DNA of 32,000 nt from Candidatus Saccharimonas aalborgensis (GCF_000392435.1 NC_021219.1:480001-512000); one strand, 5' to 3'. Positions 8,584 through 30,666 are shown, counted from the first letter of the stretch. Made by a program: numbers and translations. Notes: generated by a model not told the origin, from the sequence alone.

Positions 8584-8658
8584 TGGCTCCGGCAGCTGGG
8601 CTCGAACCAGCGACCTAATCGTTAACAGCGACCCGCTCTACCACTGAGCTATGCCGGA
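8584..8658 (-). tRNA. tRNA-Asn (anticodon GTT), 75 nt with encoded CCA
   Basis: Hand-folded cloverleaf: acceptor TCCGGCA/TGCCGGA, D arm GCTC-AGTGGTA-GAGC, anticodon arm GGTCG-CTGTTAA-CGATT (two G-U pairs), variable loop AGGTC, T arm GCTGG-TTCGAGC-CCAGC, discriminator G, CCA. Confidence 0.9.
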
Positions 8659-8669
8659 ATACAAGTGCT

Positions 8670-8698
8670 ATTGTATAGCATCTCTCTATCTCTGTAAA
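8670..8698 (-). promoter_or_regulatory. Candidate promoter for tRNA-Asn
   Basis: On the minus strand: TTTACA (8698-8693), a 17-nt spacer, then TACAAT (8675-8670). The -10 element ends 11 nt upstream of the mature tRNA 5' end. Confidence 0.5.
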
Positions 8699-8700
8699 TA

Positions 8701-10422
8701 TCACTGTACGTGCAAAGCGTCGAGCTGTCGGGCAAGTTCCGCGATATTTGCCCACGACGAACCATCTGTCATGATCGCTAGTACATACGTGCCGCTCGGA
8801 CTATACACGATAGCAGCATCATGGAGTAAGCCGTCCATAAATCCGACTTTGTCGGCAACCGCGCCATTCACTCCCGAGGGAATCCCGCGCCGATACACAT
8901 TCGCTTTCATCGCGCCAATCAGGCGTTGTTGATTGATCGTCGAATAGTTTTGGCCAGTGGCAATCATACCCAGCATTAGCGAGAGGTCGTTTGCAGTCGT
9001 AAACGGACCGCCGGACTTCATAAAGGTCGAATTGCTGAGACCGACCGCATGAATATCGTTTGTAATCGTCGATAGACCAAGGGTTTTTAGAAACGCTTCT
9101 GCACACGCATTGTCGCTGAGACTAATCATCTTGTTGAAACAATCGGCATTGGTGGCCCAATCACGCTTACCTTCATCAATCTGCTTGAGCAACGTATAGG
9201 CGGCAAAAAGTTTGTAGGTGCTCGCCGTTACAAATTGCTTGTTGCCATTGTAATCGGCCCGCCGACCCTTGCCCCCCAGTTCGATCATCGAAATACCGTA
9301 CACTCCTGAGTGATCGTGAGCATAATTTGCCATCAAGGCCGACATACCGGTGTCACTCGGACTATAGGTGCGTGTATATTGCTCGCTGGGCGGGATAGCT
9401 TTTACCCGCGCAGTTGCTTGCTCCCCCGTACCCGAAACGACACCCTGGATAGTAGCAATCGTGGCTGGTGTGTCAAGCGCTTGGCCGCTGGCGCCATTGA
9501 CACGCGATATCTCGGTGAAATCTCTTGTGGTAATACGCGAGACACCAGCTTGGACTGCAACTTTTGACGCCACGTTCTTTTGTAACCAATCTCCTGCTCT
9601 ATCGCCGTTTACTACTGCTACCAGGTTGCCGTCTTTTTGCGAGAAATCGAGCCACGAAAATAGCTCCTGCGCCCCAATGCTAATGGAGCTACCCCCTACT
9701 AGCATGCTTATTCCAGCACCGATCCGCGTATTGAGTTCATCGGCGGCCCGCTGCGCGAGGGTATCTGTAATCACCGGTGCGGTTTCTTTCATCGCCACCC
9801 TGACTGATGATGGTGTTGTCAGCACGGGCTTGAGTTTTTTGATCGTTGAGAGTACTTCATCTTGCTCGCATTGACCGCCGGTCTTTGACGGCACAAGCTC
9901 GAGTCGAGCGCCATTTGCCTTGAGGGTAGCGTCGACAGGATTTGTTTGACACTCCGGCATGATATGAGCGTTTATGTAGTCATCATAATTATCACCGACA
10001 GTCGCATCGGGAACGACCGTCGACTTCTTTGCTGCCCACCACAGCGACGTCGGGACGAGTCGTAAGTACCACGGATAATCAAGCTGGCTAATGCGGTCGG
10101 TGTTATCTACCTTGATATCCAACTCAGACAAAGTAGGCGATACGACTGATGCTTCACGGTTTCCCATATAAATGCTGACGTGATGTTTGCTGTAGGCATC
10201 ATTGAGCGTTGCTATCGCGTCGCTCTTTTTTTGACCGCCAAGATTCACGCCATCTATCGTTACAAAAGGAAGCAGCCTATCTGAGGGATAGAGAAACTGC
10301 ATCACCAACAGAGCGATGACGAGACCTGCCCCTCCGATAAGTGCGATGCGCTTCCACGAATATTGCTTTAGTCGCATCCAGAAACGCACTACTACTGCGC
10401 GAACACGTTGCATAACTTTCAT
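8701..10422 (-). CDS. Membrane-anchored serine hydrolase: a large exported N-terminal region plus a C-terminal class-A beta-lactamase/PBP-like domain
   Basis: N-terminal TM helix (IALIGGAGLVIALLVMQFLY). The C-terminal domain carries SxxK (ASTYK), SDN (SLSDNAC) and a KxG-like triad (ADKVG), in the order expected for the class-A beta-lactamase fold. Confidence 0.75.
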   Translation of the reverse strand: MKVMQRVRAVVVRFWMRLKQYSWKRIALIGGAGLVIALLVMQFLYPSDRLLPFVTIDGVNLGGQKKSDAIATLNDAYSKHHVSIYMGNREASVVSPTLSELDIKVDNTDRISQLDYPWYLRLVPTSLWWAAKKSTVVPDATVGDNYDDYINAHIMPECQTNPVDATLKANGARLELVPSKTGGQCEQDEVLSTIKKLKPVLTTPSSVRVAMKETAPVITDTLAQRAADELNTRIGAGISMLVGGSSISIGAQELFSWLDFSQKDGNLVAVVNGDRAGDWLQKNVASKVAVQAGVSRITTRDFTEISRVNGASGQALDTPATIATIQGVVSGTGEQATARVKAIPPSEQYTRTYSPSDTGMSALMANYAHDHSGVYGISMIELGGKGRRADYNGNKQFVTASTYKLFAAYTLLKQIDEGKRDWATNADCFNKMISLSDNACAEAFLKTLGLSTITNDIHAVGLSNSTFMKSGGPFTTANDLSLMLGMIATGQNYSTINQQRLIGAMKANVYRRGIPSGVNGAVADKVGFMDGLLHDAAIVYSPSGTYVLAIMTDGSSWANIAELARQLDALHVQ

Positions 10423-10439
10423 TATATACTGCTTTTGTT

Positions 10440-10823
10440 TTAAGCGAGTTTATCCTCGGGAATATCATACCCAAGAATCTTGAGTGACTCGAGTAGCGTA
10501 GCGATCTCTTTTGCAGACTGCTCGTTGCCCTGACCGCGTAATGCTTCGATTTTCGTGCGTATTTCCTGCTCAGCGGTCTTTGGATGATTTTGTGCAACAT
10601 GAGTACCGATACTACTAACGACTTCAAGTGTACGAGCACTGCTATCTTTTTTTATTAACCAACCACGTGCGATAAGTCCATCAATATGCGTTGCCACAGT
10701 GCTCACTGATTTGTAGTCGAGCGCTCGCATAATTTCTCGATAGCTCGGACCATACCCGTTACCTTTTATGAATCCGTCGATAAAACTAAGCAGTTCGCGT
10801 TGCTTTTTTGTTGGTCGTTCCAT
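10440..10823 (-). CDS. LexA-like winged-helix regulator: LexA N-terminal DNA-binding domain only, with no S24 peptidase domain
   Basis: The N-terminus, KKQRELLSFIDGFIKGNGYGPSYREIMRALDYKSVSTVATHIDGLIARGWLIKK...RTLEV, parallels the LexA DNA-binding domain. The protein ends at 127 aa in a charged helical tail with no Ser/Lys peptidase region. An AAGGAG SD lies 7 nt upstream of the ATG. Confidence 0.75.
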   Translation of the reverse strand: MERPTKKQRELLSFIDGFIKGNGYGPSYREIMRALDYKSVSTVATHIDGLIARGWLIKKDSSARTLEVVSSIGTHVAQNHPKTAEQEIRTKIEALRGQGNEQSAKEIATLLESLKILGYDIPEDKLA

Positions 10824-12108
10824 GTGTTTCTCCTTTTGCTAGTACCACCGCTGCCATACCCCACCAAATGATCGATACCGTATCGTCTACCCATACGGGC
10901 AACAATAATCCAACCACGCTCAGTCCGATGCCGCTGCCAAAAAGAGTGAGCGCCAGCCAGTCTGCCCTCCGTGCCCATAGACGCCGCAGTGTAACAATCA
11001 TTATGGAGATAAAGAGACCAAGTCCCAGCCAACCGACTTCGTGAGCGACGAATAAATAGTGGTTTTCGATAATCAATGGCTCACCGCCCATCAACGATGC
11101 CGATCCCGTGCTGCCTACTCCGCTACCAAGTGGTTGCGCTAGCATGCGATTAAGTCCATCACCCAGCGAGGCAGCATGCGCGGTATTTGAATCAACTGCG
11201 GCACCCGTTGTTGGGCTGTCATGCAAAATCACTGTCCTAAAAAATGAGCTGTCTTTCAATAGTAGACTCCCTACGACTAAGAGTGCGGTGACTACTGCTA
11301 GAACAGACCATTTTTTGGCATCAAGATGTTTGCCATAGCGAGCGCCCACCACTGTGAGTATCCCCACCGCAGCACCGATCCAGGCACTTCTCGAGTAACT
11401 TACCCAGAGCGCTATGATGCTACCAACTGCCAAAAATGCATGCAGCCACCGCATACGTTGATCACGCACCGTCCGACCATATTTCATACCGAATGCGACC
11501 ACCCCCACAAGTACAATCAAGGCATAGGCACCGAGCGGGTTGGGGCCCCTCAGGGTACTATTGAAGCGCACGAAATCAGGATTTTTATCGACCGTTATAT
11601 ATGGCTCGATCGTGGCCGAGCTATAGCCAAGATACTTGAGGGCATCGTGCGGTAATACGAGTTGGAGGCAAGTAAACCCTAGTACGACCAAGGCACCTGC
11701 TATGCCAATGGTTATAAACTGCTGCTTATACCGCGGATAGAGTGTGAGAAAGACATAGACAAGGCAAAAATAAAGGAGATATCTGAGATCGATGGAGAGT
11801 CCTGCCACAAGCGACTGCCAGGTGACTGGTTTCAGTAAGGCAACACCACCATGAAGTACAGCAAATGCCAGCATGAGCCGTATCAAGTTGTCCTTTAGCA
11901 GTGTCCGCCACTGGCCTCGCTGTGTCACCGCGACAGCGAGTAGCACGAGAGCAATTATCATCAGTAGTTCTTTCCACGCCTTGATACCAAGTGCCAATGA
12001 CGGCCAATGACTGCCGACAGCTACAATAAGTGGCGCATGCAAAACGATGAGTCCAAAAATAATCAGGAGGAGCCAAGACGGTAGATATTCGAGCAGCACG
12101 CGCTTCAT
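10786..12108 (-). CDS. O-antigen ligase/polymerase-family (Wzy_C) polytopic membrane protein
   Basis: About 10-12 hydrophobic helices. Family-typical motifs are WVSYSRSAWIGAAVGIL and IIENHYLFVAHEVGWLGLGLF. The 3' end overlaps the next gene's start by 38 nt. Confidence 0.8.
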   Translation of the reverse strand: MKRVLLEYLPSWLLLIIFGLIVLHAPLIVAVGSHWPSLALGIKAWKELLMIIALVLLAVAVTQRGQWRTLLKDNLIRLMLAFAVLHGGVALLKPVTWQSLVAGLSIDLRYLLYFCLVYVFLTLYPRYKQQFITIGIAGALVVLGFTCLQLVLPHDALKYLGYSSATIEPYITVDKNPDFVRFNSTLRGPNPLGAYALIVLVGVVAFGMKYGRTVRDQRMRWLHAFLAVGSIIALWVSYSRSAWIGAAVGILTVVGARYGKHLDAKKWSVLAVVTALLVVGSLLLKDSSFFRTVILHDSPTTGAAVDSNTAHAASLGDGLNRMLAQPLGSGVGSTGSASLMGGEPLIIENHYLFVAHEVGWLGLGLFISIMIVTLRRLWARRADWLALTLFGSGIGLSVVGLLLPVWVDDTVSIIWWGMAAVVLAKGETHGTTNKKATRTA

Positions 12109-12114
12109 TATCCT

Positions 12115-12120
12115 ATTGTA
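12115..12120 (-). promoter_or_regulatory. -10-like hexamer TACAAT, 6 nt upstream of the ATG at 12108 (leaderless-type arrangement)
   Basis: The minus strand reads TACAAT-AGGATA-ATG. There is no SD in the gap. Confidence 0.4.
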
Positions 12121-12128
12121 CCGAAAAA

Positions 12129-12137
12129 TGGTATACT
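12129..12137 (+). promoter_or_regulatory. Extended -10-like element TGgTATACT upstream of the phosphotransferase gene
   Basis: TGG-TATACT at 12129-12137, with the ATG at 12149 (11 nt downstream) and no SD. Confidence 0.35.
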
Positions 12138-12148
12138 ATCGCTACATT

Positions 12149-13585
12149 ATGCCATCAAAAAACACCAAATTGTATAGCCTCATCCTCATCGCTGCCGATC
12201 TCGCTGTCCTGGCGATCGTTTTCTTCATTGCGTATTATGTTCGCACACAGATAGATCATCGCGACTTGCTCCATACCGTTTATTGGCGTGATTACGTTGT
12301 GGGATTCGCTTGTATTGCACCGATTTGGGTACTTACCTACGCCTCGATGGGCCTCTATAGCGCCAATATCTACAATCGCCGACTCGTTGAATGGGGTAGG
12401 GTGCTGCTTGGCACATTGATGGGAATCCTTCTCGTTATCGGATGGGAATACGCAACACGCATGTACATATTTCCTGCGCGTCTCGTGGCTCTCTATGTCT
12501 TTGTCGGCTCGGTACTCTCTGTCATCGTGATTCGCGAGCTATTGCGCATCATTCGTAGCCTCCTCTATCGCTACGGCAAGGGAATTAGCCGAGTGCTCAT
12601 CGTCGGCAACTCCAGCGCAACAAAAGATATTGCCGAAGCATTGTCTTCTACCCAGAAGTCCGGCTATCGAATTGTTGCACTAGCTGGTCCGAAACACTGT
12701 GTTCCCGTCGGCCTCGATATCAAGCATTTCTCATCTACCGATAGCGCGCTCAAGCAAATCCACACCCTCGGCATTACGACAATCATCCAGACCGACCTTT
12801 ACGATAGTGAGGAACGCAATCAACGCATCCTTGGTGCTGCCCAGATCAACCACATTCAGTACAATTTCATTCCGGGTGAGGCTGAGTTTTATACCGGTAA
12901 AAATACGGTTGATGTCTTTCTCGGCTATCCCATGATCACAGTGAGCCAAACGCCACTTGTAGGATGGGGCGCCATCGCAAAGCGCATCTTTGATCTCCTC
13001 GCTTCACTAGTTATGTTGATAATTATCCTGCCTATCCTCGCGGTGCTGTCGCTCTTACAGATACTATTCAACCCCGGCCCGGTATTCTATATCAGCAAGC
13101 GTCTTAGCCAATTTAGTAAACCTATTTTGCTACTCAAGTTTCGCACCATGCGACCCGAGTACGGCAAAAAGGATGCAAGTCTCGAGTTCGAAGATATGGG
13201 ACGACACGACCTCGCCGAGGAATATCGAAAAAATCGCAAAGTGAAGGACGATCCGCGCGTCACTCCATTTGGACGGTTCCTTCGTAGTACCTCGCTCGAT
13301 GAGCTACCTCAGATATTTAATGTCATCCGAGGTGATCTTAGCCTCGTCGGGCCTCGCCCTATCTTGCCACAGGAGGTGAAGTTTAGTTCGAGCCGCGCCG
13401 CGCTCCTCCATAGTGTCAAAAGTGGCGTTACGGGTCTGTGGCAAGTCAGCGGGCGGAGCGAACTAAGCTTCGATGAGCGCATCGAGCTTGAACTTTACTA
13501 CGCCCAGAACTGGAGCTTCTGGCTCGATCTCCGTATCCTGTTCAAGACTATCGGTGTGGTGCTACGCAAAACCGGAGCACGATAG
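12149..13585 (+). CDS. Polyprenyl-phosphate sugar phosphotransferase (WbaP/exopolysaccharide initiating-enzyme family, Bac_transf)
   Basis: N-terminal TM helices and a central Rossmann-like region (RVLIVGNSSATKDIAEAL). The C-terminal catalytic domain reads KRIFDLLASLVMLIIILPILAV...NPGPVFY...KFRTM...DDPRVTPFGRFLRSTSLDELPQIFNVIRGDLSLVGPRP...YYAQNWSFWLDLRILFKTI. The start at 12149 (or 12128) is preferred because the tracked start at 12047 overlaps the divergent gene. Confidence 0.9.
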   Translation: MPSKNTKLYSLILIAADLAVLAIVFFIAYYVRTQIDHRDLLHTVYWRDYVVGFACIAPIWVLTYASMGLYSANIYNRRLVEWGRVLLGTLMGILLVIGWEYATRMYIFPARLVALYVFVGSVLSVIVIRELLRIIRSLLYRYGKGISRVLIVGNSSATKDIAEALSSTQKSGYRIVALAGPKHCVPVGLDIKHFSSTDSALKQIHTLGITTIIQTDLYDSEERNQRILGAAQINHIQYNFIPGEAEFYTGKNTVDVFLGYPMITVSQTPLVGWGAIAKRIFDLLASLVMLIIILPILAVLSLLQILFNPGPVFYISKRLSQFSKPILLLKFRTMRPEYGKKDASLEFEDMGRHDLAEEYRKNRKVKDDPRVTPFGRFLRSTSLDELPQIFNVIRGDLSLVGPRPILPQEVKFSSSRAALLHSVKSGVTGLWQVSGRSELSFDERIELELYYAQNWSFWLDLRILFKTIGVVLRKTGAR

Positions 13586-13594
13586 GTAATAGAG

Positions 13595-13903
13595 CTAGCC
13601 AAAAAACCAAGCGTTTACGTATGATAGGAGCCCGATTCCCATACACACCAGCAGGCAAAATATATATAGGACTCTTTTTGTCACATGTTTTGCCATCAGT
13701 GCAAAATATATCATAGCGATTCCAAATACGATACTAGTTAGTAATATCGACTGAAACCAGGCATGAAGCGTCTTTTCATCGCTTTCAATACGACCGACTT
13801 TTAACTCGGCGACAATCATCACAATGCTCAACAAAACAACTGGTACATATCCAAATTTCAAGAGAGCTGGTTTTAACCGATTGCTATTATTATTTCTACC
13901 CAC
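13595..13903 (-). CDS. Small 3-TM membrane protein (cassette A downstream of the SGNH hydrolase)
   Basis: Three hydrophobic helices. The GTG at 13903 lies 8 nt after an AGGAGG SD inside the 39-bp element shared with cassette B. An in-frame ATG at 13939 (114 aa) is the alternative start but has no SD. Confidence 0.6.
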   Translation of the reverse strand: MGRNNNSNRLKPALLKFGYVPVVLLSIVMIVAELKVGRIESDEKTLHAWFQSILLTSIVFGIAMIYFALMAKHVTKRVLYIFCLLVCMGIGLLSYVNAWFFG

Positions 13904-13935
13904 ACCCCACTCCTCCTGGAATATCTTTCCATTTT
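13897..13935 (-). repeat. 39-bp junction element, copy A
   Basis: tacccacaccccactcctcctggaatatctttccatttt is identical to 14276-14314. On the minus strand it carries a TGGAA-AGATA-TTCCA hairpin, an AGGAGG SD, a GTG start, and relic codons KWKDIPGGVGCG* of the hydrolase 3' end. Confidence 0.95.
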
Positions 13936-13985
13936 CCATTAGTACTAGTTGTCTTGTTAGCTATATAGCTTAGGCTTCTCGTTTG

Positions 13986-14282
13986 TTAAAAAGTAATACG
14001 AATGCTCATAGAGATGAGAGTATAGATGAACAGTCCTAGCGCTACAAGTAAACTTATTGTTGTCAGTACGATTGCTCTTTTCTTTACCAATAGGAAAATA
14101 CTGGTAATACCGCTTACAAATAGTACCACAAGGGTAAAGTTGTTTAAATGGCTCTGATCGACCCCAGATCGTGCACCCATATAATCGTTGACAAAAAATA
14201 CAACTATTGAAACTAATAGGCTTATCATTGCTATAGCATTAACTTGTGTTATCGATGAAGCTTTATTTTTTTCCTTACCCAC
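13986..14282 (-). CDS. Small 3-TM membrane protein (cassette B, immediately downstream of the SGNH hydrolase)
   Basis: The GTG start at 14282 overlaps the hydrolase stop codon (14275-14277) by 8 nt, with an AGGAGG SD 8 nt upstream. Three hydrophobic helices. Confidence 0.65.
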   Translation of the reverse strand: MGKEKNKASSITQVNAIAMISLLVSIVVFFVNDYMGARSGVDQSHLNNFTLVVLFVSGITSIFLLVKKRAIVLTTISLLVALGLFIYTLISMSIRITF

Positions 14283-17200
14283 ACCCCACTCCTCCTGGAA
14301 TATCTTTCCATTTTAGTAATTGTAGCTGTCTGGTGGACTGAGTGGCAAGTTTTATTTGGGTGATAGTATCGGGTTTGTAAGTAATACAGATGCTGGAGCT
14401 AGGGTTGTCTTTGGTATGTTTTTTAGCGGAGATATAGGGGATAGGAATGTTCATACTATCTTGTACTATAGCAAGTTTACTAACTACGGGGCTATAGCCA
14501 ACATCTTTACTCGTAGCTAATAGGTTCCATGCTTGGATGGGCTGGATGGCTTTGTCCGGCGTATTAGCTGGGGTGCCGGTAGGAGAATAGTCAGTGATAC
14601 CCAGTTGGGCTTCAGCGGCGTAGAAGTTGCGGAAAAGGTAGATGCGGGTGGGGTCTTCACCCTTCAAGGCATCGCCGTTACGCGCCTGATAGAGTAGCTG
14701 GGCATTATCGGGCTGACCGTCGTGATCGGCGTCAGCAGTGGCGGGTTCAGAGCGGCAGTGGTTGGCGCTGCCCGTCAGACTTTGGGCAGTGAGCGTAAGG
14801 GTACGGACTTCACCCGGCAGGACTTTGCTGAGTGAAGTAGGTTTGTACTCTACGCAGCCGTAGTCGCCAGCACGAAGATAGATACTAGGGATGATGGGAC
14901 TAGCTGATGCAGTAGTGGCCACCGGATCATAGTTACTGATGGTGAAATTAGCATACGGTGCAGTATCTGGGATGCTCTTAGGAGCAGCGAGACTGTACGT
15001 CCTGCCACTACTCGCACCAACGATAGCCCAACCGTCACCATCAGGATCATTGTCACCGCTCACACCAGTAAGTGTAGTGGCGTTGACTCTACGTTCGAGA
15101 TAGAGATAGTTGTCTTTTTCGGGAGCACCAGCGTAGATTCGTGCAGGATCGCCGAGACGGACGCGGTACGGAGCTTCAGGCACGTTTACCTCTGGGTCAC
15201 AAGCGTCGTCTATGCCATCGTGGTCGGCATCGATATTGAGCGGTGTGATATAGGCACACTTATCTACAGAGTCGTCGATACCATCCTCGTCGATGTCATT
15301 CGGGTTGGGTCCACGCACCTCGACAGTTTGGTACAATTCGAGCGGCTTACCATCTGCTCCAATACCCCTCATGACGAGCGTGTGGTAGCCGGCCGGGACT
15401 GATGATGGGATGGTGATTTGAGCTGATGCGGTGCCATCGGACGCAGCAGTAACCTGCCCAAGTGAAGTCGGGTCAGAGTAGAGGGTGATATCGACTTTTG
15501 TTTCAGATGCAAATTTGTATTTTCCTGAATTTACGTTTAGAGTTTCTGTCATTTTGACTAATGTACCGTTCGTGAGTGTATAGTAATGGATTTCTGTATC
15601 ATCCGGAGGCACTCCCTCAGTAAAGTACGGCGGCACGACAGCGTCAGCAGCAGTGATGGAGCTATCTGGGCAAATTTTCACCGATGCATCACTACACGTC
15701 TGGTAGTCGAGGAGACTCTGTCCGCCCACTGCATCCCAGACTGCATTTGCTATATCGACATGTCCGAAATGATTTGGGTGAAAGCCTTCTTGCTGTTCAT
15801 TGCCATTTGCGCCAAAAATATTAGTTATTGCGGTTACATGTTGAGAGTCCACGTCGCAAAGTCGGTGGTTGCCAAACGCATTTTCTATATTAATATATTT
15901 TACTCCGGCTTTTTTGGCAGCTTGTTCGATGATGTTATTCATGTAGATGATAGAGTTGTTGATGAATTCACGTTCAGAAGAGTCAAGGTTGAAGGTATTT
16001 GTGCATTTTGCATAAGGGTTACCGTTGATAAAGATTGGGTAGCCCAACACATATACCTTGGCTTTGTTAACAGAAGCTGCACTCAGCTCAGAGTAAAGGC
16101 TACTCAGGTTTTCAAATTGTCCAATGAGTTCGTTCTTCATCTTTTCGCGCCATTGCGTAGTTGCGTAATCACAGGTTTCTATCTTTCTTACACATATATT
16201 TATTTTTCCTCCGAAATCCACATCATTTCCACCCATAGTCAGCGTGATCACCTTTGGCTGATACTTCTTCACAAATTCAATTTGTTTTTGCCTACCAGGT
16301 ATAAATTCATTGAGGGCTTGTGCTTTGAGCGCTCCATAGTCATAGCCTTTGAGCCTACCACCCTGCCCTATATAGTCATCTACTCCCTGTTCTTTGACAT
16401 CCCAGGCCGTCGCACCAGAGCAAGCGATCGACTGCCATTTTGTAGGAAGCGTGTTGTAGGGACTACCTAGCTCCATACCCGTTGCAAGCATATAGGGGTA
16501 CGACCTCGTGCTTATATGACACTTTTCAACCGGCCGATTTAGTATTAGATCGCCTCCTACAACGCTATAGCCGTTGTCATCAGTGTGGTTTCGGTAGTAT
16601 TTTAGATTACCATTTGGCTGTAGCTCTGTATCTCCCTCGCCGCTACTATACGAATCACCGAGCGCCAGATAATCAAGGCGGTCGTCGACATGTCCTGGAG
16701 CGTAGAGAGTGACCGTACGCTGCACTGAAGCCCCGCCGTGATAGCCAAATTGCAGTTCACTACCCGTTTCATCAAAATGGAAGTCATCAGTCCGAGGATA
16801 CCAGGCATCAGGACCTTGAATGAGGCCATAATCCGATTGCGAATAGAGTTTGTACGGACAGGTGTCGTAGCCGTTCATCGGCCCTTGCGGTTCGGTCGGA
16901 CCCAAACAACTATCGGTGATATGCCAAAACTTCAAGTCCGTAGAACCGCCCGCGACCACCGTACTCCCATCATCACTGACACCCAATGCAGCAACTGGAT
17001 AACCACTATATATGGAGGAATAGGGCGAAGCACCAAAGACTCTGTTTTCTTTTGTCTCCATGTCGTAGCGGATAAGTTTGCCTGGAACACCATACGAATC
17101 ACCGGCATTATAGACGACATAGCGGCCATTACGGGAAATGCCGTAGCGCGTGATCCCCTGTTGTACCCCAGCTGCGGGGAAATCTCGCTCAGCAAGATTG

Positions 17201-17679
17201 AGCGAGTAGATACGATGTGTATCCCATGATGGATGTGAATCGAGATGTGCCAGGATATTGTAGACGATATACAATTCACTGTTGATATCCATAACCACAC
17301 GTGTCGTACCTGGTATGAGACTCATGTGGCCGTAAAATTGAAGTGCAACAAACGTCCCGCTCGTCGGTGTCGCTATGTAGTAACGCCCCGAGGAAATGCT
17401 ATGAGCAATCTGTACACCATCACCCGCTGTCACGCAGGCCTCTATCTGCTTTAGTTCATCAGTATCGTATTCTTTATAGTCAATTGTCGTATCATTACAA
17501 TCAACGACACGCTCTTGCTGGCTAGCGGGGCGCTCGACAGCTGAAGCGACGGTGAATTTGCCTTGGGCCCAATCTATTTCCGCAGCATATACCGACATCG
17601 AGAACACTGCCACAAGCAAAAATACAGCCATCACTCCCGCAAATGCTTTTAGTCTCCCAGTAGGTATCTGTCTGAACAT
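14275..17679 (-). CDS. Large secreted multidomain SGNH/GDSL hydrolase (lipase/esterase-like) with calcium-binding TSP3-like repeats
   Basis: Signal peptide (AFAGVMAVFLLVAVFSMSVYA|AE). SGNH blocks are LALGDSYSSGEG (I), IACSGAT (II), TMGGNDVDF (III) and EGFHPNHFGH (V). Asp-rich repeats: DIDEDGIDDSVD, DADHDGIDDACD, DNDPDGDGW, DADHDGQPDN. The ATG at 17679 is preferred over the GTG at 17682. Confidence 0.85.
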   Translation of the reverse strand: MFRQIPTGRLKAFAGVMAVFLLVAVFSMSVYAAEIDWAQGKFTVASAVERPASQQERVVDCNDTTIDYKEYDTDELKQIEACVTAGDGVQIAHSISSGRYYIATPTSGTFVALQFYGHMSLIPGTTRVVMDINSELYIVYNILAHLDSHPSWDTHRIYSLNLAERDFPAAGVQQGITRYGISRNGRYVVYNAGDSYGVPGKLIRYDMETKENRVFGASPYSSIYSGYPVAALGVSDDGSTVVAGGSTDLKFWHITDSCLGPTEPQGPMNGYDTCPYKLYSQSDYGLIQGPDAWYPRTDDFHFDETGSELQFGYHGGASVQRTVTLYAPGHVDDRLDYLALGDSYSSGEGDTELQPNGNLKYYRNHTDDNGYSVVGGDLILNRPVEKCHISTRSYPYMLATGMELGSPYNTLPTKWQSIACSGATAWDVKEQGVDDYIGQGGRLKGYDYGALKAQALNEFIPGRQKQIEFVKKYQPKVITLTMGGNDVDFGGKINICVRKIETCDYATTQWREKMKNELIGQFENLSSLYSELSAASVNKAKVYVLGYPIFINGNPYAKCTNTFNLDSSEREFINNSIIYMNNIIEQAAKKAGVKYINIENAFGNHRLCDVDSQHVTAITNIFGANGNEQQEGFHPNHFGHVDIANAVWDAVGGQSLLDYQTCSDASVKICPDSSITAADAVVPPYFTEGVPPDDTEIHYYTLTNGTLVKMTETLNVNSGKYKFASETKVDITLYSDPTSLGQVTAASDGTASAQITIPSSVPAGYHTLVMRGIGADGKPLELYQTVEVRGPNPNDIDEDGIDDSVDKCAYITPLNIDADHDGIDDACDPEVNVPEAPYRVRLGDPARIYAGAPEKDNYLYLERRVNATTLTGVSGDNDPDGDGWAIVGASSGRTYSLAAPKSIPDTAPYANFTISNYDPVATTASASPIIPSIYLRAGDYGCVEYKPTSLSKVLPGEVRTLTLTAQSLTGSANHCRSEPATADADHDGQPDNAQLLYQARNGDALKGEDPTRIYLFRNFYAAEAQLGITDYSPTGTPANTPDKAIQPIQAWNLLATSKDVGYSPVVSKLAIVQDSMNIPIPYISAKKHTKDNPSSSICITYKPDTITQIKLATQSTRQLQLLKWKDIPGGVGCG
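14276..14314 (-). repeat. 39-bp junction element, copy B
   Basis: Identical to 13897-13935 at an offset of 379 bp. It covers the last 12 codons plus stop of the hydrolase and the SD and start of the small ORF. Confidence 0.95.
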
Positions 17680-17738
17680 CACTATGCACCTATACTACCC
17701 CTCGTGTTTATCTCATACAAGTATGCGGTCATAGAAGG

Positions 17739-17750: not shown

Positions 17751-18875
17751 ATGAAGCAACCTCCAAAAATCGCTATCGTCTGCGAGTTTCTCAGTGTCAT
17801 GGGAGGCGCCGAAAATGTCGTGCTCGCTATGCACAAGCTTTTTCCCGACGCACCGATCTACACCGCACTGTATGATGCGTCGCGAGTACCGGCCTTTCAA
17901 GACGCAGATGTGCGAACGACGTGGCTACAAAAATTACCGCGATTTCTACGAAAGGCCTATCGCCTCTTTCCGACGCTCGCAGCAAATGCCTTTCGCCGTC
18001 TCGACCTCAGCGACTACGATATCATTCTGACCAGCTCCTATCTCAATGCAAATCAGGTTCAAAAAGCTCGTCCCGATCAAAAAATTATTTCCTATTGCCA
18101 CACACCTGCCCGCTACTACTGGAGTCACTACGAATTGTATAGAAAGAACCCCGCCTACGGACCGCTCAGCCCCTTCATCAAGCTCCTTATGCCGCTCATG
18201 GTTCCTCGTCAGCGCCGACGAGATTACGAAGCCGCGCAGCGCGTTGATGTATTTATCGCCAATTCAACCGAGACACAGCGCCGCATCAAAAAATATTACG
18301 GCCGACCTTCAACTGTCATTTACCCGCCAGTCGAGACTAAGCGTTTTAGTCCCGCGCGCACCCGTGGTGATTACTATGTAACCATGGGTCGCCAGCTGCC
18401 AAACAAGCGCTTTGATCTCGCCGTGAGCGCTTGTACTACATTAGGTGTTCCGCTCAAAGTTTACGGTAATGGCCCAATGCACGACGAGCTCGTCGCATTA
18501 GCGGGACCAACTGTATCGTTTTACACTGATCGCTTTGGTGATGCCTCAGATGCTGCACTCGAAGAAGCGATCAATCATGCAAAGGGATTTATTTTCCCCT
18601 CTGATGAGGACTTTGGTATCGTCACTGTCGAAGCGCTTGCGGCAGGTGCGCCCGTCATCGGCTATCGTAATGGCGGGACACTCGATATCGTCACCGACGG
18701 CGAAACAGGTGTGTTGTTTGATAACCAGACCGTAGAGGACGTCGTCAGCGCCATCAAACGCGCCGACACTATTCACTGGTTCCCAAGCAAACTAAGCCGC
18801 ACAGCGACACGGTTTGACGCAGGACTCTTCGCGACAAAACTGCGCAAAATTGTACTCGATAACTATAAAGGATAA
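17751..18875 (+). CDS. Glycosyltransferase family 4 (GT-B, retaining type)
   Basis: The C-terminal motif FIFPSDEDFGIVTVEALAAGAPVIGYRNGGTLDIVTDGETGVLF is the E-x7-E region typical of GT4. Confidence 0.9.
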   Translation: MKQPPKIAIVCEFLSVMGGAENVVLAMHKLFPDAPIYTALYDASRVPAFQDADVRTTWLQKLPRFLRKAYRLFPTLAANAFRRLDLSDYDIILTSSYLNANQVQKARPDQKIISYCHTPARYYWSHYELYRKNPAYGPLSPFIKLLMPLMVPRQRRRDYEAAQRVDVFIANSTETQRRIKKYYGRPSTVIYPPVETKRFSPARTRGDYYVTMGRQLPNKRFDLAVSACTTLGVPLKVYGNGPMHDELVALAGPTVSFYTDRFGDASDAALEEAINHAKGFIFPSDEDFGIVTVEALAAGAPVIGYRNGGTLDIVTDGETGVLFDNQTVEDVVSAIKRADTIHWFPSKLSRTATRFDAGLFATKLRKIVLDNYKG

Positions 18876-18882
18876 GGAGTCT

Positions 18883-19434
18883 ATGAACGAAATACCATCG
18901 AAAACACCGACAAGCTCGCGAGTTGTGTACCAAAACCCCTGGATCACCATCCACGAAGACCAAACTATTACACCAGATGGTCAGACCGGCATCTATGGCT
19001 ATATGCGGTCGCGCGACTCGGTGATGGTGACGGTACTTGACGAAGACAACCGTGTATTTCTACTAAGAGCCTTTCGCTACCCATCGAACTCTTGGGGGTG
19101 GGAGCTACCGGGCGGGGGTGGTGATGGTGAGCAGTTACTTGATGCATCAAAGCGCGAGCTCGAGGAAGAAACAGGTATTCGTGCCGACTCATGGGAGTTG
19201 CTCGGAACCGATTATGTCTGCAACGGCCTGATGACCGAACGTATGGCAACCTACCTTGCTCGCGGTCACCGAACTGACGGCGAACGTGAGATATCTGATG
19301 AAACCTTTGCCGGCGAGCGTTTTTTTACCCTAGACGAAGTTGACGAATTGATTTTGAATGGAGGAATTAACGATTGTCAGACAATGACTGGTCTCCATCA
19401 TCTTAAGGTCTGGCTCAAACACCAGACGGCATAA
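18883..19434 (+). CDS. Nudix hydrolase (ADP-ribose / nucleotide-sugar pyrophosphatase-like)
   Basis: A perfect Nudix box: G-GGGDG-E-QLLDASK-RELEEETGI (G-x5-E-x7-REUxEExGU). The ATG at 18883 is preceded by an AAGGAG SD, whereas the tracked start at 18814 overlaps the GT4 gene. Confidence 0.85.
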   Translation: MNEIPSKTPTSSRVVYQNPWITIHEDQTITPDGQTGIYGYMRSRDSVMVTVLDEDNRVFLLRAFRYPSNSWGWELPGGGGDGEQLLDASKRELEEETGIRADSWELLGTDYVCNGLMTERMATYLARGHRTDGEREISDETFAGERFFTLDEVDELILNGGINDCQTMTGLHHLKVWLKHQTA

Positions 19435-21261
19435 CTACTCAACCGTAACACTTTTGGCAAGATTTCGCGGCTGGTCGACATCATTTCCCTTGGCAACTGC
19501 CATATAGTAGGCCAGGAGTTGCGAGACAACATTGAATACAAGGGGAGTGAGGAGTGTCAACTTGGTTGACAGCCTAATGACAGTTTCAGCCGCCACCCGC
19601 CGATCAGTGTCAGTGATAGCAATCACATGCGCGCCGCGCGCATTCATCTCGATCAGGTTGCTCTGCGTCTTTTCGTAGAGCCAGTTATCCTGGAGATAAC
19701 ACACTTCAAAGAACCGGTCATCGATCAGCGCGATCGGACCGTGCTTCAGTTCGCCCGCGGCATACCCCTCGGCATGAATATAACTGACTTCCTTGAGCTT
19801 GAGTGCACCCTCAAGAGCGATGGGGAAGAGTGCATCACGACCAACATAGAGGGCATGTTCATAGCTAGCATACTTTTTTGCCACTTTTTTTACGTCACCA
19901 ACTGACTTCTCTATCACTTTCTCAATTTCACTTGGTAGCTGGTCAAGCTCCGTGATGTACTGACTCAACTCTTTAGGATTCACCCCCTTTGCCGAAGCCA
20001 TCATCAGCGCGAATATGACGATCGCTGCCACCTGTGAGGTAAAGGCCTTGGTACTGGCAACACTTATCTCTGCGCCGACATGCACATAGACGCCGCCATC
20101 GACTTCGCGCGCGATGGTACTCCCGACAACATTGACGACACCGAGGCATTTTACTCCGCGTCGCTTCAATTCTTGTAGACAGGCGAGTGTGTCAGCAGTC
20201 TCACCACTTTGACTGACGATCAGCGCAATCGTATTATCTGGAACCGTAAACGATCGATAGCGAAGTTCGCTAGCGATATAGGAGTTTATCGTCACACCGT
20301 CCAAAAACTGCTCGGCGATATACCCCGCCATCAAACCAGCGTAGTAGGCGGTTCCACAGCCTATCACCATGACATTTTTTACCGCACGCAGCTCTTCATT
20401 TGTCATATTGATGCCGCCTAGTTTCGCGGTCATCGTATCAGTATGAACCCGTCCGCTTAGCGTTGAACGGAGGCTCTCTGGCTGTTCATAGATTTCTTTG
20501 AGTAGGAAATGCTTATAGCCTTTCTTTTGGATTGCCTCAAGGTCAAGCTCGAGCGTTTCGATCTGTGACTCGACGGCATGTGCCTCGCTATCATACAGTT
20601 GTACACCGTCACGGGTGCACAGTCCGATCTCGCCATCATGGAGATAAATTACTCTGTCAGTATGCCCAAGTAGTGCGCTAGCATCACTCGCCACAAACAC
20701 CTCGCCCTCACCGACACCCACAATGAGCGGGCTGCCTTTGCGGGCAACGACTAGTTCGTCTGGATTTTTATCACTCACTACACCAATACCATACGCCCCT
20801 ACTACTAGCTGGAGCGCTCCGCTCACCGCCTCAAGTAAATCATGGTTTTTTTGATACAGGGAGTCAATGAGCGCCGTCAGCACTTCGCTGTCAGTATCAC
20901 TCTTGAAGTCATAGCCACGTTTTGACAATGTGTTCTTCAATTCCAAATAGTTCTCGATAATCCCATTATGAACCAGATAGAGGTCTCCGGCATTATGCGG
21001 GTGGGCATTTCGCTTGCTCGGTGCACCGTGAGTTGCCCAGCGAGTATGACCGATACCGACACTATCCCTTGTCCTGTGTTCACGTACTTTTGCCTCAAGC
21101 TCGACAACTTTACCCTTTGCTCTCAGGAGCGTTGGCTTACCGGTCACATCAAGCGTCACAATTCCCGCGCTGTCATACCCACGATACTCGAGCCGTTTGA
21201 GTCCATTAAGGAGTAGCTGCTGAACTGGCTTTTTGCCGATATATCCTACGATTCCGCACAT
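19435..21261 (-). CDS. glmS: Glutamine--fructose-6-phosphate aminotransferase (isomerizing)
   Basis: N-terminal MCGIVGYIG (Ntn Cys), two SIS domains, and a C-terminal ...NLAKSVTVE. At 608 aa it has the canonical length. Confidence 0.97.
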   Translation of the reverse strand: MCGIVGYIGKKPVQQLLLNGLKRLEYRGYDSAGIVTLDVTGKPTLLRAKGKVVELEAKVREHRTRDSVGIGHTRWATHGAPSKRNAHPHNAGDLYLVHNGIIENYLELKNTLSKRGYDFKSDTDSEVLTALIDSLYQKNHDLLEAVSGALQLVVGAYGIGVVSDKNPDELVVARKGSPLIVGVGEGEVFVASDASALLGHTDRVIYLHDGEIGLCTRDGVQLYDSEAHAVESQIETLELDLEAIQKKGYKHFLLKEIYEQPESLRSTLSGRVHTDTMTAKLGGINMTNEELRAVKNVMVIGCGTAYYAGLMAGYIAEQFLDGVTINSYIASELRYRSFTVPDNTIALIVSQSGETADTLACLQELKRRGVKCLGVVNVVGSTIAREVDGGVYVHVGAEISVASTKAFTSQVAAIVIFALMMASAKGVNPKELSQYITELDQLPSEIEKVIEKSVGDVKKVAKKYASYEHALYVGRDALFPIALEGALKLKEVSYIHAEGYAAGELKHGPIALIDDRFFEVCYLQDNWLYEKTQSNLIEMNARGAHVIAITDTDRRVAAETVIRLSTKLTLLTPLVFNVVSQLLAYYMAVAKGNDVDQPRNLAKSVTVE

Positions 21262-21365
21262 GTCATTTGTCCTTTCACGGGTAGTGAGTGTACCGTCTTA
21301 TGCTTTACGTATGATAGCGCAAAATTAATAGAATTACTATAAATGTAGGAATTACAACAAATTGA

Positions 21366-22397
21366 TCAACTAGTCTGTATCTGTTTAGCTACATCACCAA
21401 CGCTGCGTGACTGGCTTTTGTCCACCACGACAATCCCCTCATCGGTCACCACGGCTGCAACATTATTAAGCCCGATCACTGCCACGGGGATGGACGTCAT
21501 ATTGGCGATATAGCTGTTATTCACATTGAAAACCCGAGCCATCCCTCGGATAGTATTTTCATCCGCATCATGTGCCGAAACTGCATAGAGGTCCTGGTAA
21601 TTCCCTATGTCGATCCAGTCAAAGGTGCAGGCGACAACATGTGCGCCTTTCATTTTTTCGGAGAGCACATGGTCCAAGATTGCGCCCTCTTGGTGTGTAT
21701 ATACCTCCTCGATTTCCCCTTCATCCGCCTCTACGATCGCTTGATACTCAGCATAACTCTCGGGACTCTCGCGTTTTATTTCACCCATGATGTACTGCAC
21801 CGTCGACACAAAGTAGCCAGCGTTCCATAGATATTGTCCCGACTCAAACCAGCCATTAGCCGTTTCTTGGTCGGGCTGATATTTCCAGGATTCGATCGCG
21901 TAGACATTGCTGCCATGCTGGTTTCCGCCTTTTTTGATATATCCGAGTTGATTTGATGGATAAGTGGGGATGATACCAAATTGGACTAGTTTTGCACCGC
22001 CTTGTACCGCAGCCTCCGCTTCCTTGACGGTACGTTCAAACGTCTCTGTATCACGGATAAGATGGTCGGACCAAAGGATAAATACTGGTTCGTCATCAGA
22101 GTAGCCATCCCGCAACAGTCGACGAATTCCTAGATAGAGCGCATTCGCCACACCTTTTCGCGCTGGCTCTACCACGATATTATCTGCGATTTCGGGCAGT
22201 TGGCGCTTTGTTTCTTCGGCAATTGGTGCACTCGTCACAACATAGGTGGCCTGCGAAAACTCTCTGACGCGTTCATACGTTTTTCGGAGCAGCGACTTCC
22301 CTGTTGCATCGATGGACAGAAATTGCTTTGGTTTATCAGGGGTACTGAGCGGCCAAAGACGCGTCCCTGATCCGCCGGCGATAATAATAGTGATCAT
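21366..22397 (-). CDS. manC: Mannose-1-phosphate guanylyltransferase-like sugar nucleotidyltransferase
   Basis: The N-terminus IIIAGGSGTRLWPLSTPDKPKQFL is the ManC/GMP signature. The 343-aa protein is a nucleotidyltransferase fold without a C-terminal isomerase cupin domain. Confidence 0.8.
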   Translation of the reverse strand: MITIIIAGGSGTRLWPLSTPDKPKQFLSIDATGKSLLRKTYERVREFSQATYVVTSAPIAEETKRQLPEIADNIVVEPARKGVANALYLGIRRLLRDGYSDDEPVFILWSDHLIRDTETFERTVKEAEAAVQGGAKLVQFGIIPTYPSNQLGYIKKGGNQHGSNVYAIESWKYQPDQETANGWFESGQYLWNAGYFVSTVQYIMGEIKRESPESYAEYQAIVEADEGEIEEVYTHQEGAILDHVLSEKMKGAHVVACTFDWIDIGNYQDLYAVSAHDADENTIRGMARVFNVNNSYIANMTSIPVAVIGLNNVAAVVTDEGIVVVDKSQSRSVGDVAKQIQTS

Positions 22398-22403
22398 ATA
22401 TCT

Positions 22404-22409
22404 ATTATA
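22404..22409 (-). promoter_or_regulatory. -10 hexamer TATAAT, 6 nt upstream of the ATG at 22397 (leaderless-type arrangement)
   Basis: The minus strand reads TATAAT-AGATAT-ATG, with no SD. Confidence 0.45.
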
Positions 22410-22502
22410 GTAGACGATGTAGAAGTTGCCCCCTATTTATTACTCCTATTTCGACATATACTAGTAGGATAATACAATCTATCTGGGTGGTAGGAGGCAA
22501 CA

Positions 22503-22757
22503 ATGAAAAGTCATGAACAACTACTCGCTCAAGCAAGTGATCCGACCCGGGACCATGACTGTCCCTATTTGGAGCACCTACGCTCCCTAACAGAACGAAC
22601 CCAGGGAATGGGCTCGAGAGGCATAGAATTATATCGATTAACCAGCCTCGTTTCACATCTGGAGACCCTGCACCAAGGTGGCAACTGTCCCCCTACCCAC
22701 ATCGATAAATATCCGACAAGCGAGTGGGAAGACTGGCTCGAGCGCAGCGCCGTCTAG
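22503..22757 (+). CDS. Hypothetical small soluble protein (84 aa)
   Basis: An AGGAGG SD lies 5 nt upstream of the ATG. No recognisable motif. Confidence 0.5.
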   Translation: MKSHEQLLAQASDPTRDHDCPYLEHLRSLTERTQGMGSRGIELYRLTSLVSHLETLHQGGNCPPTHIDKYPTSEWEDWLERSAV

Positions 22758-22846
22758 ATAGCAGGGAATTTCATCGCCCACCCTATGCATTTGGAGTGTT
22801 TCGTGTTACTATAAACATAGGCAATATTTAAAATAAATACCCCTGT

Positions 22847-23389
22847 ATGAGAATTCAAAATCGCAATCAAACACGACCCATCCTTGTCTTTTCAGCCATC
22901 GTTGGCATTGTGCTTTTTACATTGCTCGGTGCGTCGTACTATTTTAAGAAATGGCCATTCTCTCCTGCCTCGAGTAGTACTTCCCAGACTAATTCCACTA
23001 TCAACTACACCAAGCCAACAGAGCAGCAGATGACAGCAGGCACACAGGCAAAAGAACAAGCCGCCGCAAACAGCAGCCAGCAGAATACAGACAAAAAGGA
23101 TACTCCTCTGGGGGTTACCCTCACAACCGTCCAGCCCGGCACGGTTGTCTATATTAGAGCAATGATCGACAAAGTAACTACCTCTGCAACCTGCCACCTC
23201 GCAATGGTAGGCCCAGGTCAAAAGACCTACTCTGCCGAAGCCCCTACACAAGCGCTTGCTGGTACGTCGACCTGCCGAGGATTTAACATTCCAATGACCT
23301 CGTTGGCACCAGGGATATGGAAGATTACTGTCTCAGTGACAGACGACGGGACGCTCAGCGGTTCTGCGACCACGGAGAAAGAATTATGA
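22847..23389 (+). CDS. Hypothetical membrane-anchored exported protein
   Basis: N-terminal TM helix (ILVFSAIVGIVLFTLLGASYYF), a Ser/Thr/Gln-rich linker, and a ~85-aa beta-rich C-terminal domain with 2 Cys. The stop overlaps the next start (ATGA). Confidence 0.65.
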   Translation: MRIQNRNQTRPILVFSAIVGIVLFTLLGASYYFKKWPFSPASSSTSQTNSTINYTKPTEQQMTAGTQAKEQAAANSSQQNTDKKDTPLGVTLTTVQPGTVVYIRAMIDKVTTSATCHLAMVGPGQKTYSAEAPTQALAGTSTCRGFNIPMTSLAPGIWKITVSVTDDGTLSGSATTEKEL

Positions 23390-24642: not shown

Positions 24643-24699
24643 TTACTTTTTGTTATATCCCAAAAAACGACCGGTATAAGTAGAATCATGTCGTACTTG

Positions 24700-25812: not shown

Positions 25813-25815
25813 AGA

Positions 25816-27909: not shown

Positions 27910-28225
27910 GTGCGTTACCTCCAATTGTTGCCTCAAGTTCTTGTATTCTCTTTTCAAGCTCCTGTAGTCGTAGTTTATTGTCAGCAAGTGCGACTCCAAC
28001 TGACCTGATTACTTTATCGACATGGTATTCTGTCACATTACTTTTACGTTCAAGCAGTTTATTATACCTCTCAATATCACCATAATACTGGGATATGAAA
28101 GAATGAATATCGTCTGTTCCCGCTAATCTTGCGACTACGTACTTCATGCCTTTTTTGACACGTCGCGGAGTTATTTTCGAAATAGACCGGAGAGAGCTCC
28201 TCGCAATTTTTTTTATCTCACTCAT
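27893..28225 (-). CDS. Small basic protein with a C-terminal coiled coil (hypothetical)
   Basis: The ATG at 28225 overlaps the upstream stop (ATGA). The C-terminal heptads read NKLRLQELEKRIQELEATI. Its 3' end overlaps the methyltransferase-GT gene. Confidence 0.5.
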   Translation of the reverse strand: MSEIKKIARSSLRSISKITPRRVKKGMKYVVARLAGTDDIHSFISQYYGDIERYNKLLERKSNVTEYHVDKVIRSVGVALADNKLRLQELEKRIQELEATIGGNAHDRSK

Positions 28226-30665: not shown

Positions 30666-30666
30666 G

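Follow-up and report, generated by a model that had tools for sequence, protein, structure and literature searches.

The 32,000-nucleotide (nt) stretch of the Candidatus Saccharimonas aalborgensis genome analyzed here (GCF_000392435.1, NC_021219.1:480001-512000; hereafter the window) carries a gene for a large secreted SGNH hydrolase followed by two small membrane-protein genes, which we refer to as cassettes. We found that the end of the hydrolase gene is dual coded, in that the codons for the last residues of the enzyme also hold the predicted ribosome-binding site and start codon of the next gene, and that a second copy of this junction stands ahead of the second cassette. We are highly confident in the resulting picture of a locus architecture in which a conserved secreted enzyme with a dual-coded junction would gain cassettes together with foreign allele ends and lose them by recombination between junctions. 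We likewise regard it as established, with little doubt, that the locus has this anatomy and this junction, that the arrays vary, that the hydrolase fragments derive from functional alleles, and that the cassettes are under purifying selection. The cassettes may protect their producer, a reading of their function that we favor only tentatively.

Junction between the hydrolase gene and the cassettes

The hydrolase gene occupies positions 14275 to 17682 on the minus strand, as do all features of the locus, and was delimited by an open reading frame (ORF) call, Pfam GDSL matches, homologs, and an AlphaFold2 (AF2) model. It is of the unanchored form that we call type A and encodes 1,135 amino acids (aa) if translation begins at the GTG at 17682, or 1,134 aa from the ATG at 17679. 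Its TAA stop codon is overlapped by 8 nt by the GTG start of cassette 1 (13986 to 14282), which encodes a 98-aa protein with three transmembrane (TM) segments and a basic N terminus. Cassette 2 (13595 to 13903) follows and encodes a 102-aa protein, also with three TM segments; both genes were identified by ORF calls, and the three hydrophobic segments of each product by a Kyte-Doolittle script.

Repeat comparison showed that the two cassettes are preceded by copies of the same sequence. Junction copy 1 (14264 to 14314) spans the last 12 hydrolase codons and the TAA, and it also contains the Shine-Dalgarno sequence AGGAGGAG and the cassette 1 GTG. Junction copy 2 (13885 to 13935) consists of an orphan 3' fragment of the hydrolase gene with the Shine-Dalgarno sequence and the cassette 2 GTG. 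The copies are 90% identical over 51 nt and share an exact 39-nt core, a 34-nt part of which gave two exact matches where none were expected (100 shuffles). Read in the hydrolase frame, copy 2 (~13896 to 13940) encodes NGKWKDIPGGVGCG and then a TAG stop. In both copies, AGGAGGAG is followed 8 nt on by the GTG of the small gene. Because AGGAGGAG and the GTG lie within hydrolase codons, the repeat is both the hydrolase gene end and the predicted translation initiation region (Shine-Dalgarno sequence and GTG) of every cassette. This second role of the repeat had escaped the initial annotation. For cassette 2, an ATG at 13939 would give an alternative product of 114 aa, but the GTG at 13903 is the likelier start because the same AGGAGGAG stands 8 nt upstream of it. 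Since the last ~12 codons of the hydrolase encode a Shine-Dalgarno sequence and a GTG, the first small membrane protein would be made by translational coupling to the enzyme. An initial annotation, made from the sequence alone, had described the overlap of the hydrolase stop with the GTG of a 98-aa 3-TM protein, the ~102-aa 3-TM protein beyond it, and a second junction encoding the last hydrolase codons and a stop; all of these were recovered here.

Other accounts of the junction were rejected. An RNA element is not indicated, since the z-scores for folding of the two copies (-1.4 and -1.3) are not significant and Rfam, whose single match in the window is a tRNA, has none there. The frame of cassette 1 is open for 12 codons upstream of its GTG, but a programmed +1 frameshift that would join the hydrolase and cassette 1 in one product was rejected because no conserved slippery context exists across the family; such a frameshift is also unnecessary, as reinitiation at the Shine-Dalgarno sequence and GTG accounts for the conservation. 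A sortase-type sorting signal was dismissed as well, the tail motif [LIV]P.G being the protein-level shadow of the Shine-Dalgarno sequence (AGGAGG, GAAGGAG, or AAAGGAG); the tails of the anchored type B enzymes described below have no LPXTG either. Separately, a promoter-like site (TTGCCA-18-TACAAT; 14319 to 14348, minus strand), matching at 10 of 12 positions, sits 37 nt upstream of the cassette 1 GTG and thus still inside the hydrolase gene, within its final 70 nt. It is a consensus match alone, and no equivalent was found ahead of cassette 2.

A secreted, multidomain SGNH hydrolase

The hydrolase begins with a signal peptide (~aa 1 to 34; 17581 to 17682) read from the sequence and a predicted helix: basic residues are followed by a hydrophobic helix at aa 8 to 28 in the AF2 model and then by VYA|AE, with likely cleavage after VYA. 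At the C terminus there is no TM segment and no LPXTG or other sorting signal. The protein therefore reads as one exported by Sec and released without an anchor. The catalytic domain (aa 338 to 650; 15733 to 16671) was defined by Pfam, invariant residues, phmmer, and Foldseek. Over aa 338 to 648, PF13472 scored 44.4 bits (cutoff, 32.9) and PF00657 scored 33.8 bits (cutoff, 23.6). The SGNH block residues S344, G423, N486, and H635 are invariant in an alignment of 26 homologs. The nucleophilic S344 lies in GDSYSSGEG (block I), G423 is the Gly of block II, N486 lies in GGND (block III), and H635 lies in FHPN (block V), with E632 at position -3. The closest solved protein by sequence is the phospholipase A1 of Streptomyces albidoflavus (4HYQ; phmmer E value, 2e-11). 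When the predicted SGNH domain was compared with the PDB by Foldseek (TM-scores normalized by target length), it matched 4HYQ (E value, 3e-10; TM-score, 0.83), the Streptomyces rimosus lipase 5MAL (0.84), and the Streptomyces scabies esterase 1ESC (0.69). By every sequence and fold criterion, including the alpha/beta/alpha fold, the enzyme is a member of the SGNH/GDSL superfamily, and its sequence and predicted fold support a phospholipase A1/lipase-like activity. The initial annotation of a secreted 1,134-aa SGNH hydrolase with a signal peptide, a full set of SGNH blocks, and no anchor is thus upheld, and its lipase/esterase assignment agrees with the sequence and predicted-fold matches to 4HYQ and 5MAL.

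In the AF2 model (mean predicted local distance difference test score, 75), the signal helix is followed in order by a beta-propeller, the SGNH domain, an Ig-like sandwich, Asp-rich loops, further beta domains, and a C-terminal beta domain. The propeller (~aa 40 to 330; 16693 to 17565) is built of all-beta blades in the model, and Foldseek matched it to WD40 and TolB-type propellers (E values, 1e-6 to 1e-4). Between its block I and block II residues (S344 to G423), the SGNH domain itself has an insertion of ~70 aa. Beyond it, a region at ~aa 695 to 832 (15187 to 15600) comprises the Ig-like beta-sandwich (~aa 695 to 790), whose AF2 strands lie at aa 697 to 790, and then TSP3-type Asp-rich calcium loops. 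The TSP3 matches at aa 795 to 831 are weak (Pfam TSP_3 E value, 0.02; NCBIfam throspo3 E value, 5e-4) and are backed by Asp clusters at aa 796 to 829, 877 to 881, and 984 to 992 that are conserved across the 26 homologs, some Asp residues being invariant; the calcium-binding repeats proposed initially are borne out to that extent. The C-terminal beta domain (~aa 1048 to 1135; 14278 to 14541), recognized from the AF2 model and the alignment, is specific to the family and contains the conserved residues Cys1099 and Cys1134. A search of 1.84 billion representative proteins with this domain returned 19 matches, nearly all of which are either short fragment ORFs or C termini of this hydrolase family; on this ground, with three weak multi-stretch matches among the 19 left aside, we rejected the idea that it is a mobile docking module carried by other enzymes. 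The hydrolase as a whole has more than 797 homologs, and those with names are from Saccharibacteria. No report on this hydrolase family or its cassettes was found in the searchable literature; in a Southlakia annotation table from transposon sequencing, the sole SGNH protein is a cytoplasmic one of 190 aa.

Two further observations concern the region after the catalytic domain. In oral-type loci (L017 to L037 and L084), alignment columns ~600 to 950, which follow the SGNH domain, are a hotspot of allelic divergence, with identities of 35 to 75% between alleles that are 96 to 100% identical elsewhere. This pattern points either to mosaic recombination or to diversifying pressure on what may be a recognition domain; placement of the hotspot at the Ig-like sandwich and the following domains (roughly 15200 to 15700 in the window) is our own mapping and was not aligned to window coordinates. 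In L092 (GCA_964267585.1), which is 99% identical to the window, the hydrolase is split into ORFs of 735 and 412 aa near ~4720 (window ~15500) by one base in an A-run (A4 versus A5), which could be a sequencing error or a real frameshift.

Two types of hydrolase locus

To place the window among related loci, we collected 11 by exact-protein look-up and 80 metagenome loci with a family profile and analyzed all of them with one script. Type A comprises 26 distinct lineages, including the window, whose enzymes of ~1,040 to 1,185 aa have a soluble C-terminal domain ending in the tail ...[LIV]P.G..C[EG]. In 24 of these lineages, a small membrane-protein gene begins 8 to 29 nt before the hydrolase stop codon. 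Type A arrays hold one to six cassettes. Downstream copies of the hydrolase 3' end stand ahead of later cassettes in 22 of the 26 lineages, with one to four copies in each; they are 35 to 403 nt long and 70 to 100% identical to the resident end, and most end at the stop position. The genes flanking type A loci vary from genome to genome, and the hydrolase with its cassettes is therefore the unit that is conserved.

Type B, represented by ~45 loci within L036 to L090, has enzymes of 800 to 1,000 aa (27 to 35% identity) whose C-terminal part is a long low-complexity linker and a single TM helix with a basic tail behind it. Hydrolase 3' repeats were found in none of these ~45 loci, and ~40 of the 45 have no small TM gene downstream. 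A type A and a type B locus (L028 and L058) lie ~20 kb apart on contig ODTJ01000068.1, and the two types are therefore paralogs. Strict complementarity between an anchor on the hydrolase and a cassette next to it was considered and rejected, as the only two loci that have both the enzyme's own anchor and an adjacent 3-TM gene (L020 and L035) break it.

The cassettes are hyperdiverse but maintained

Cassettes 1 and 2 have no BLASTP similarity to each other, and among 5.8 billion proteins cassette 1 has only four homologs and cassette 2 only two. Across the family, 68 distinct small proteins fell into at least 19 BLAST clusters. An alignment of 36 members had a mean identity of 15% and no conserved residue beyond the start. 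The 3-TM proteins have only a design in common, in which a basic N terminus leads into TM1, an outer loop of 10 to 20 aa connects TM1 to TM2, a basic inner loop connects TM2 to TM3, and the short outer tail after TM3 often ends in [QR]F. A second, unrelated architecture of ~100 to 120 aa fills the same slot in L001 (10042 to 10392 and 10471 to 10833), L007 (8787 to 9101), L015 (4586 to 4924, 4953 to 5261, and 5889 to 6254), and L093 (157 to 519). Its members have a basic N terminus, one TM segment, and an ectodomain of ~70 aa with conserved Cys that ends in ...YFC[TS]..AEAAGY or ...YFC[TS]..[DE]AEAAGY. Overall, cassette products range from 93 to 131 aa, with either three or four TM segments or one TM segment and the ~70-aa ectodomain. 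Searches of Pfam, NCBIfam, and PADLOC gave nothing consistent for either architecture; a DUF6249 assignment for one cassette protein (E value, 5e-4) was below the cutoff and was discarded.

Despite this diversity, the substitution patterns indicate selective constraint. Over 45 pairs, orphan positions included, the median ratio of nonsynonymous to synonymous substitution rates (dN/dS) was 0.34, compared with 0.19 for the hydrolase. Relative to their L001 orthologs, the ratio was 0.52 for cassette 1, where substitutions are few, and 0.33 for cassette 2. Positive selection was rejected, since pairwise values ranged from 0.12 to 0.69 and never exceeded 1. Judged by these ratios, the cassettes, including those at orphan positions, are real maintained genes under purifying selection.

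How arrays arise and change

The origin of the fragments is clearest in L008, where four in-frame, stop-free fragments of the hydrolase C terminus, each ending in ...GVGCE and a stop, are each followed by a different small gene. Compared with the resident 3' end, these fragments have dN/dS values of 0.08 to 0.33 with dS up to ~1. Because the differences are mostly synonymous, the fragments must have evolved inside working hydrolase genes and been displaced later, rather than having decayed in place.

Array size differs between close relatives: the window and L092 have two cassettes, and L001/L003 and L093 have five. This variation in cassette number is what the initial annotation had proposed looking for. 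The closest relatives after L092 (L001 to L004; 92.5% nucleotide identity) have the same neighboring genes, and their arrays comprise three junction copies with five cassettes. An alignment of the window with L001 runs as far as junction copy 2 of that locus, and a second one begins at its copy 3; the 48-nt repeat belongs to both. Junction copy 2 of the window is a hybrid of L001 copies 2 and 3. The window array thus equals the L001 array minus 1,166 bp (three cassettes, two of which are of the second architecture). The difference is what loss of that segment through recombination between junction repeats would leave. L092 has the same two-cassette form as the window, and L093 has its cassettes in another order with four junction copies.

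In the oral relatives, hydrolase alleles are mosaic, with breakpoints in the last ~30 codons that part the enzyme body from the first cassette, and allelic differences at the hydrolase end are confined to roughly its final 25 residues. Natural competence, with recombination of the DNA taken up, has been described in Saccharibacteria (PMC10633639) and provides a route for cassette exchange. We propose that the 3' end, because it is conserved between hydrolase alleles, would supply the homology at which recombination is anchored. The resident end would be replaced by a foreign allele end that brings a cassette with it, and the displaced module of 3' fragment and cassette would come to lie farther downstream as an orphan. 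Cassettes would be removed again when repeated junctions recombine with each other.

Cassettes can also persist where the enzyme is damaged. In L001, the last third of the hydrolase gene (8600 to 9338, equivalent to approximately 14275 to 15000 in the window) carries five frame-breaking indels (-1, -10, +2, +1, and -2) and, in addition, a 39-nt in-frame deletion, a state common to L002 to L004 and L006. The truncated 923-aa product is identical in four independent assemblies of the L001 lineage, and the downstream cassettes are intact.

Comparison with known systems

The initial annotation had likened the locus to the orphan immunity cassettes of polymorphic-toxin systems. The layout supports this comparison. 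As in cdiA-CT/cdiI of contact-dependent growth inhibition (CDI), in Rhs loci, and in Neisseria MafB/MafI, the gene for a large secreted protein has a small gene directly behind it, often with an overlap. Downstream come modules of a 3' fragment of the upstream gene with a small gene, which vary in number between close strains (fragments in 22 of 26 type A lineages), and the fragments resemble remnants of once-functional alleles displaced by recombination (dN/dS, 0.08 to 0.33). In contrast to those systems, neither a variable C-terminal toxin domain nor a pretoxin motif is present; the catalytic domain lies in the middle of the protein, and what the orphan modules retain is the conserved enzyme end. 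The small genes are alike in architecture and not in sequence and do not covary with the upstream allele, the lineage is Patescibacteria, and export relies on a Sec signal only, with no type V, VI, or VII secretion system (T5SS, T6SS, or T7SS) seen; a Pfam scan of 16 ORFs of the window (32 kb of genome) gave nothing that resembled a component of these. The locus therefore closely parallels polymorphic-toxin orphan arrays but is not a member of the class, since the variable toxin domain and the allelic covariation tested for are both absent.

Other systems share single features. In Staphylococcus aureus, EsaD/EsaG and the lipase system TslA/TilA have several immunity-like genes behind a single secreted enzyme, which in TslA/TilA is a lipase, and their copy number likewise shifts through recombination between repeats. 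Those arrays are T7SS dependent and consist of paralogs of a single family, whereas here the array holds unalignable membrane proteins of at least two architectures, parted by hydrolase 3' fragments. The Streptomyces enzymes 4HYQ, 5MAL, and 1ESC share the catalytic domain and a GDSYSSG-type block I, but they are single-domain enzymes of ~235 aa without partner genes; the propeller, Ig-like domain, calcium loops, C-terminal domain, and SGNH insertion are additions in the present family. In Serratia PhlA/PhlB, Yersinia YplA/YplB, and LipA/Lif, a gene for a lipolytic enzyme is followed by a small gene that allows its safe or productive expression. Such partners are conserved single genes, with products that are either cytoplasmic or anchored by one TM segment; arrays, accompanying enzyme fragments, and hyperdiversity are all absent. 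The cassettes do not resemble a Lif foldase, a conserved single-gene partner of ~340 aa in which a single TM segment at the N terminus precedes a helical chaperone domain.

Possible functions of the cassettes

Taken whole, the locus is best explained as an enzyme-plus-cassette array with protective cassettes, although we put this forward as a preferred reading that falls short of being probable. By analogy with immunity proteins, the cassettes could possibly be self-protection factors at the outer face of the producer's membrane, a role that we hold equally tentatively. They would shield that membrane from the producer's own hydrolase or from related hydrolases of neighboring epibionts, and orphan cassettes would be kept because they are still protective. 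We favor protection because the cassettes are strictly linked and translationally coupled to this particular enzyme and because selected orphans accumulate in very small genomes. Protection is preferred over partnership with the enzyme because unrelated architectures fill one slot and because, in the L001 lineage, cassettes outlive damage to the hydrolase.

Several findings weigh against a protective role. The hydrolase has no polymorphic toxin domain at its C terminus, and both this end and the central catalytic domain are conserved in the family. Hydrolase allele and first cassette do not covary: L022 and L027 have nearly identical enzymes and different first cassettes, and L022 and L028 have divergent enzymes and the same first cassette. 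A 3-TM protein that exposes only a loop of ~15 aa is an awkward inhibitor of a large soluble enzyme. Finally, one genome (L028/L058) also has an anchored paralog with the same catalytic domain and no cassettes, so the catalytic domain is not obviously self-toxic.

The lack of covariation, together with the breakpoints in the last ~30 codons, would suit cassettes that are unrelated to the activity of the enzyme and are instead fast-turnover envelope proteins using the hydrolase 3' end as a recombination anchor and expression platform. Such proteins might protect against host Esx effectors, toxins of other bacteria, or phage, and their extreme diversity and narrow spread (two to four homologs each among 5.8 billion proteins) would fit this reading too. 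A recently reported attack of host Actinobacteria on Saccharibacteria, by a secreted Esx effector whose presumed target lies on the epibiont surface (PMC13622651), makes it plausible. However, cassettes that merely used a convenient site would not be expected to be strictly linked to the type A hydrolase family in more than 20 lineages with differing genomic contexts, to have their Shine-Dalgarno sequence written into hydrolase codons, or to be missing as arrays from the type B paralogs. We consider this explanation unlikely.

Distinctly unlikely, in our view, is that the cassettes are docking, anchoring, or assembly partners that hold the unanchored hydrolase at the membrane in place of the type B anchor. 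The near-complementary pattern of the two types is what such a role would produce: type A enzymes have no anchor and in 24 of 26 lineages an overlapping small TM gene, whereas type B enzymes have their own TM helix and basic tail, ~40 of 45 lack a downstream small TM gene, and none has 3' repeats. Translational coupling suits a stoichiometric partner, and so would the exposed aromatic tail [QR]F of many cassettes. Yet L020 and L035 combine their own TM anchor with a following 3-TM cassette, and the cassettes are unalignable (15% mean identity, at least 19 clusters) although their supposed target, the C-terminal domain, is conserved. One anchor would be enough, but up to six cassettes are held under purifying selection, and they remain intact where the C-terminal third of the hydrolase is a pseudogene.

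The window by itself, with just two small ORFs and one short repeat, might suggest functionless local tandem duplication with decaying or chance leftovers, but this is highly improbable given the two exact matches of a 34-nt part of the repeat core where none were expected by chance, the recurrence of the pattern in 22 to 24 of 26 lineages and its absence from ~45 paralogous loci, the purifying selection on the cassettes, the mainly synonymous divergence of the fragments, which is unlike decay in place, and the lack of sequence similarity between the window cassettes.

If the protective reading is correct, no conflict locus of the effector/immunity type would have been described in Patescibacteria before this one, a possibility that we regard as rather doubtful. 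A conserved, Sec-released phospholipase-like enzyme would then be used on the membranes of hosts or rival epibionts, and the gene end would act as a built-in capture-and-expression site at which naturally competent cells acquire, reassort, and lose hyperdiverse membrane-embedded cassettes for protection. In that case, which epibiont strains coexist on one host cell could depend on their cassette repertoires.

Significance for Saccharibacteria

Saccharibacteria are obligate epibionts with genomes of ~1 Mb that are unable to make their own fatty acids. To our knowledge, little has been established about how they take up lipids from hosts, compete, or protect themselves. A widespread secreted enzyme that is predicted to be phospholipase A1/lipase-like is a strong candidate for acting on host or competitor envelopes. 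That up to six selected small genes are kept with one enzyme in streamlined genomes argues that the cassettes matter. The locus also suggests how a conserved gene end that encodes the ribosome-binding site of the next gene can act as a recombination anchor for cassette exchange, here apparently with no integrase or dedicated secretion system involved. Since the oral relatives with the richest arrays are from a group that has cultivable and genetically tractable strains among its members, the question is directly testable.

Genomic neighborhood

Cell envelope glycan genes surround the locus (10440 to 13585 and 17751 to 31494 in the window). They encode an O-antigen-ligase-like Wzy_C protein, a Bac_transf sugar transferase, a GT4 glycosyltransferase, a NUDIX protein, GlmS, a nucleotidyl transferase, a UDP-GlcNAc 2-epimerase, a methyltransferase-glycosyltransferase fusion, and a Wzt ABC transporter. 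Cassette 2 ends 10 nt from the stop codon of a convergent sugar-transferase gene. This glycan neighborhood is not kept around the homologous hydrolases of other genomes. The G+C content drops from ~0.48 to 0.41 to 0.44 across 25 to 32 kb of the window. Farther downstream of the cassettes, a 573-aa protein with a Beta-lactamase2 domain at its C terminus (8701 to 10422, minus strand) adjoins a 127-aa ORF (10440 to 10823, minus strand) whose L001 ortholog has a LexA_DNA_bind domain, and this pair of genes is kept in close relatives.

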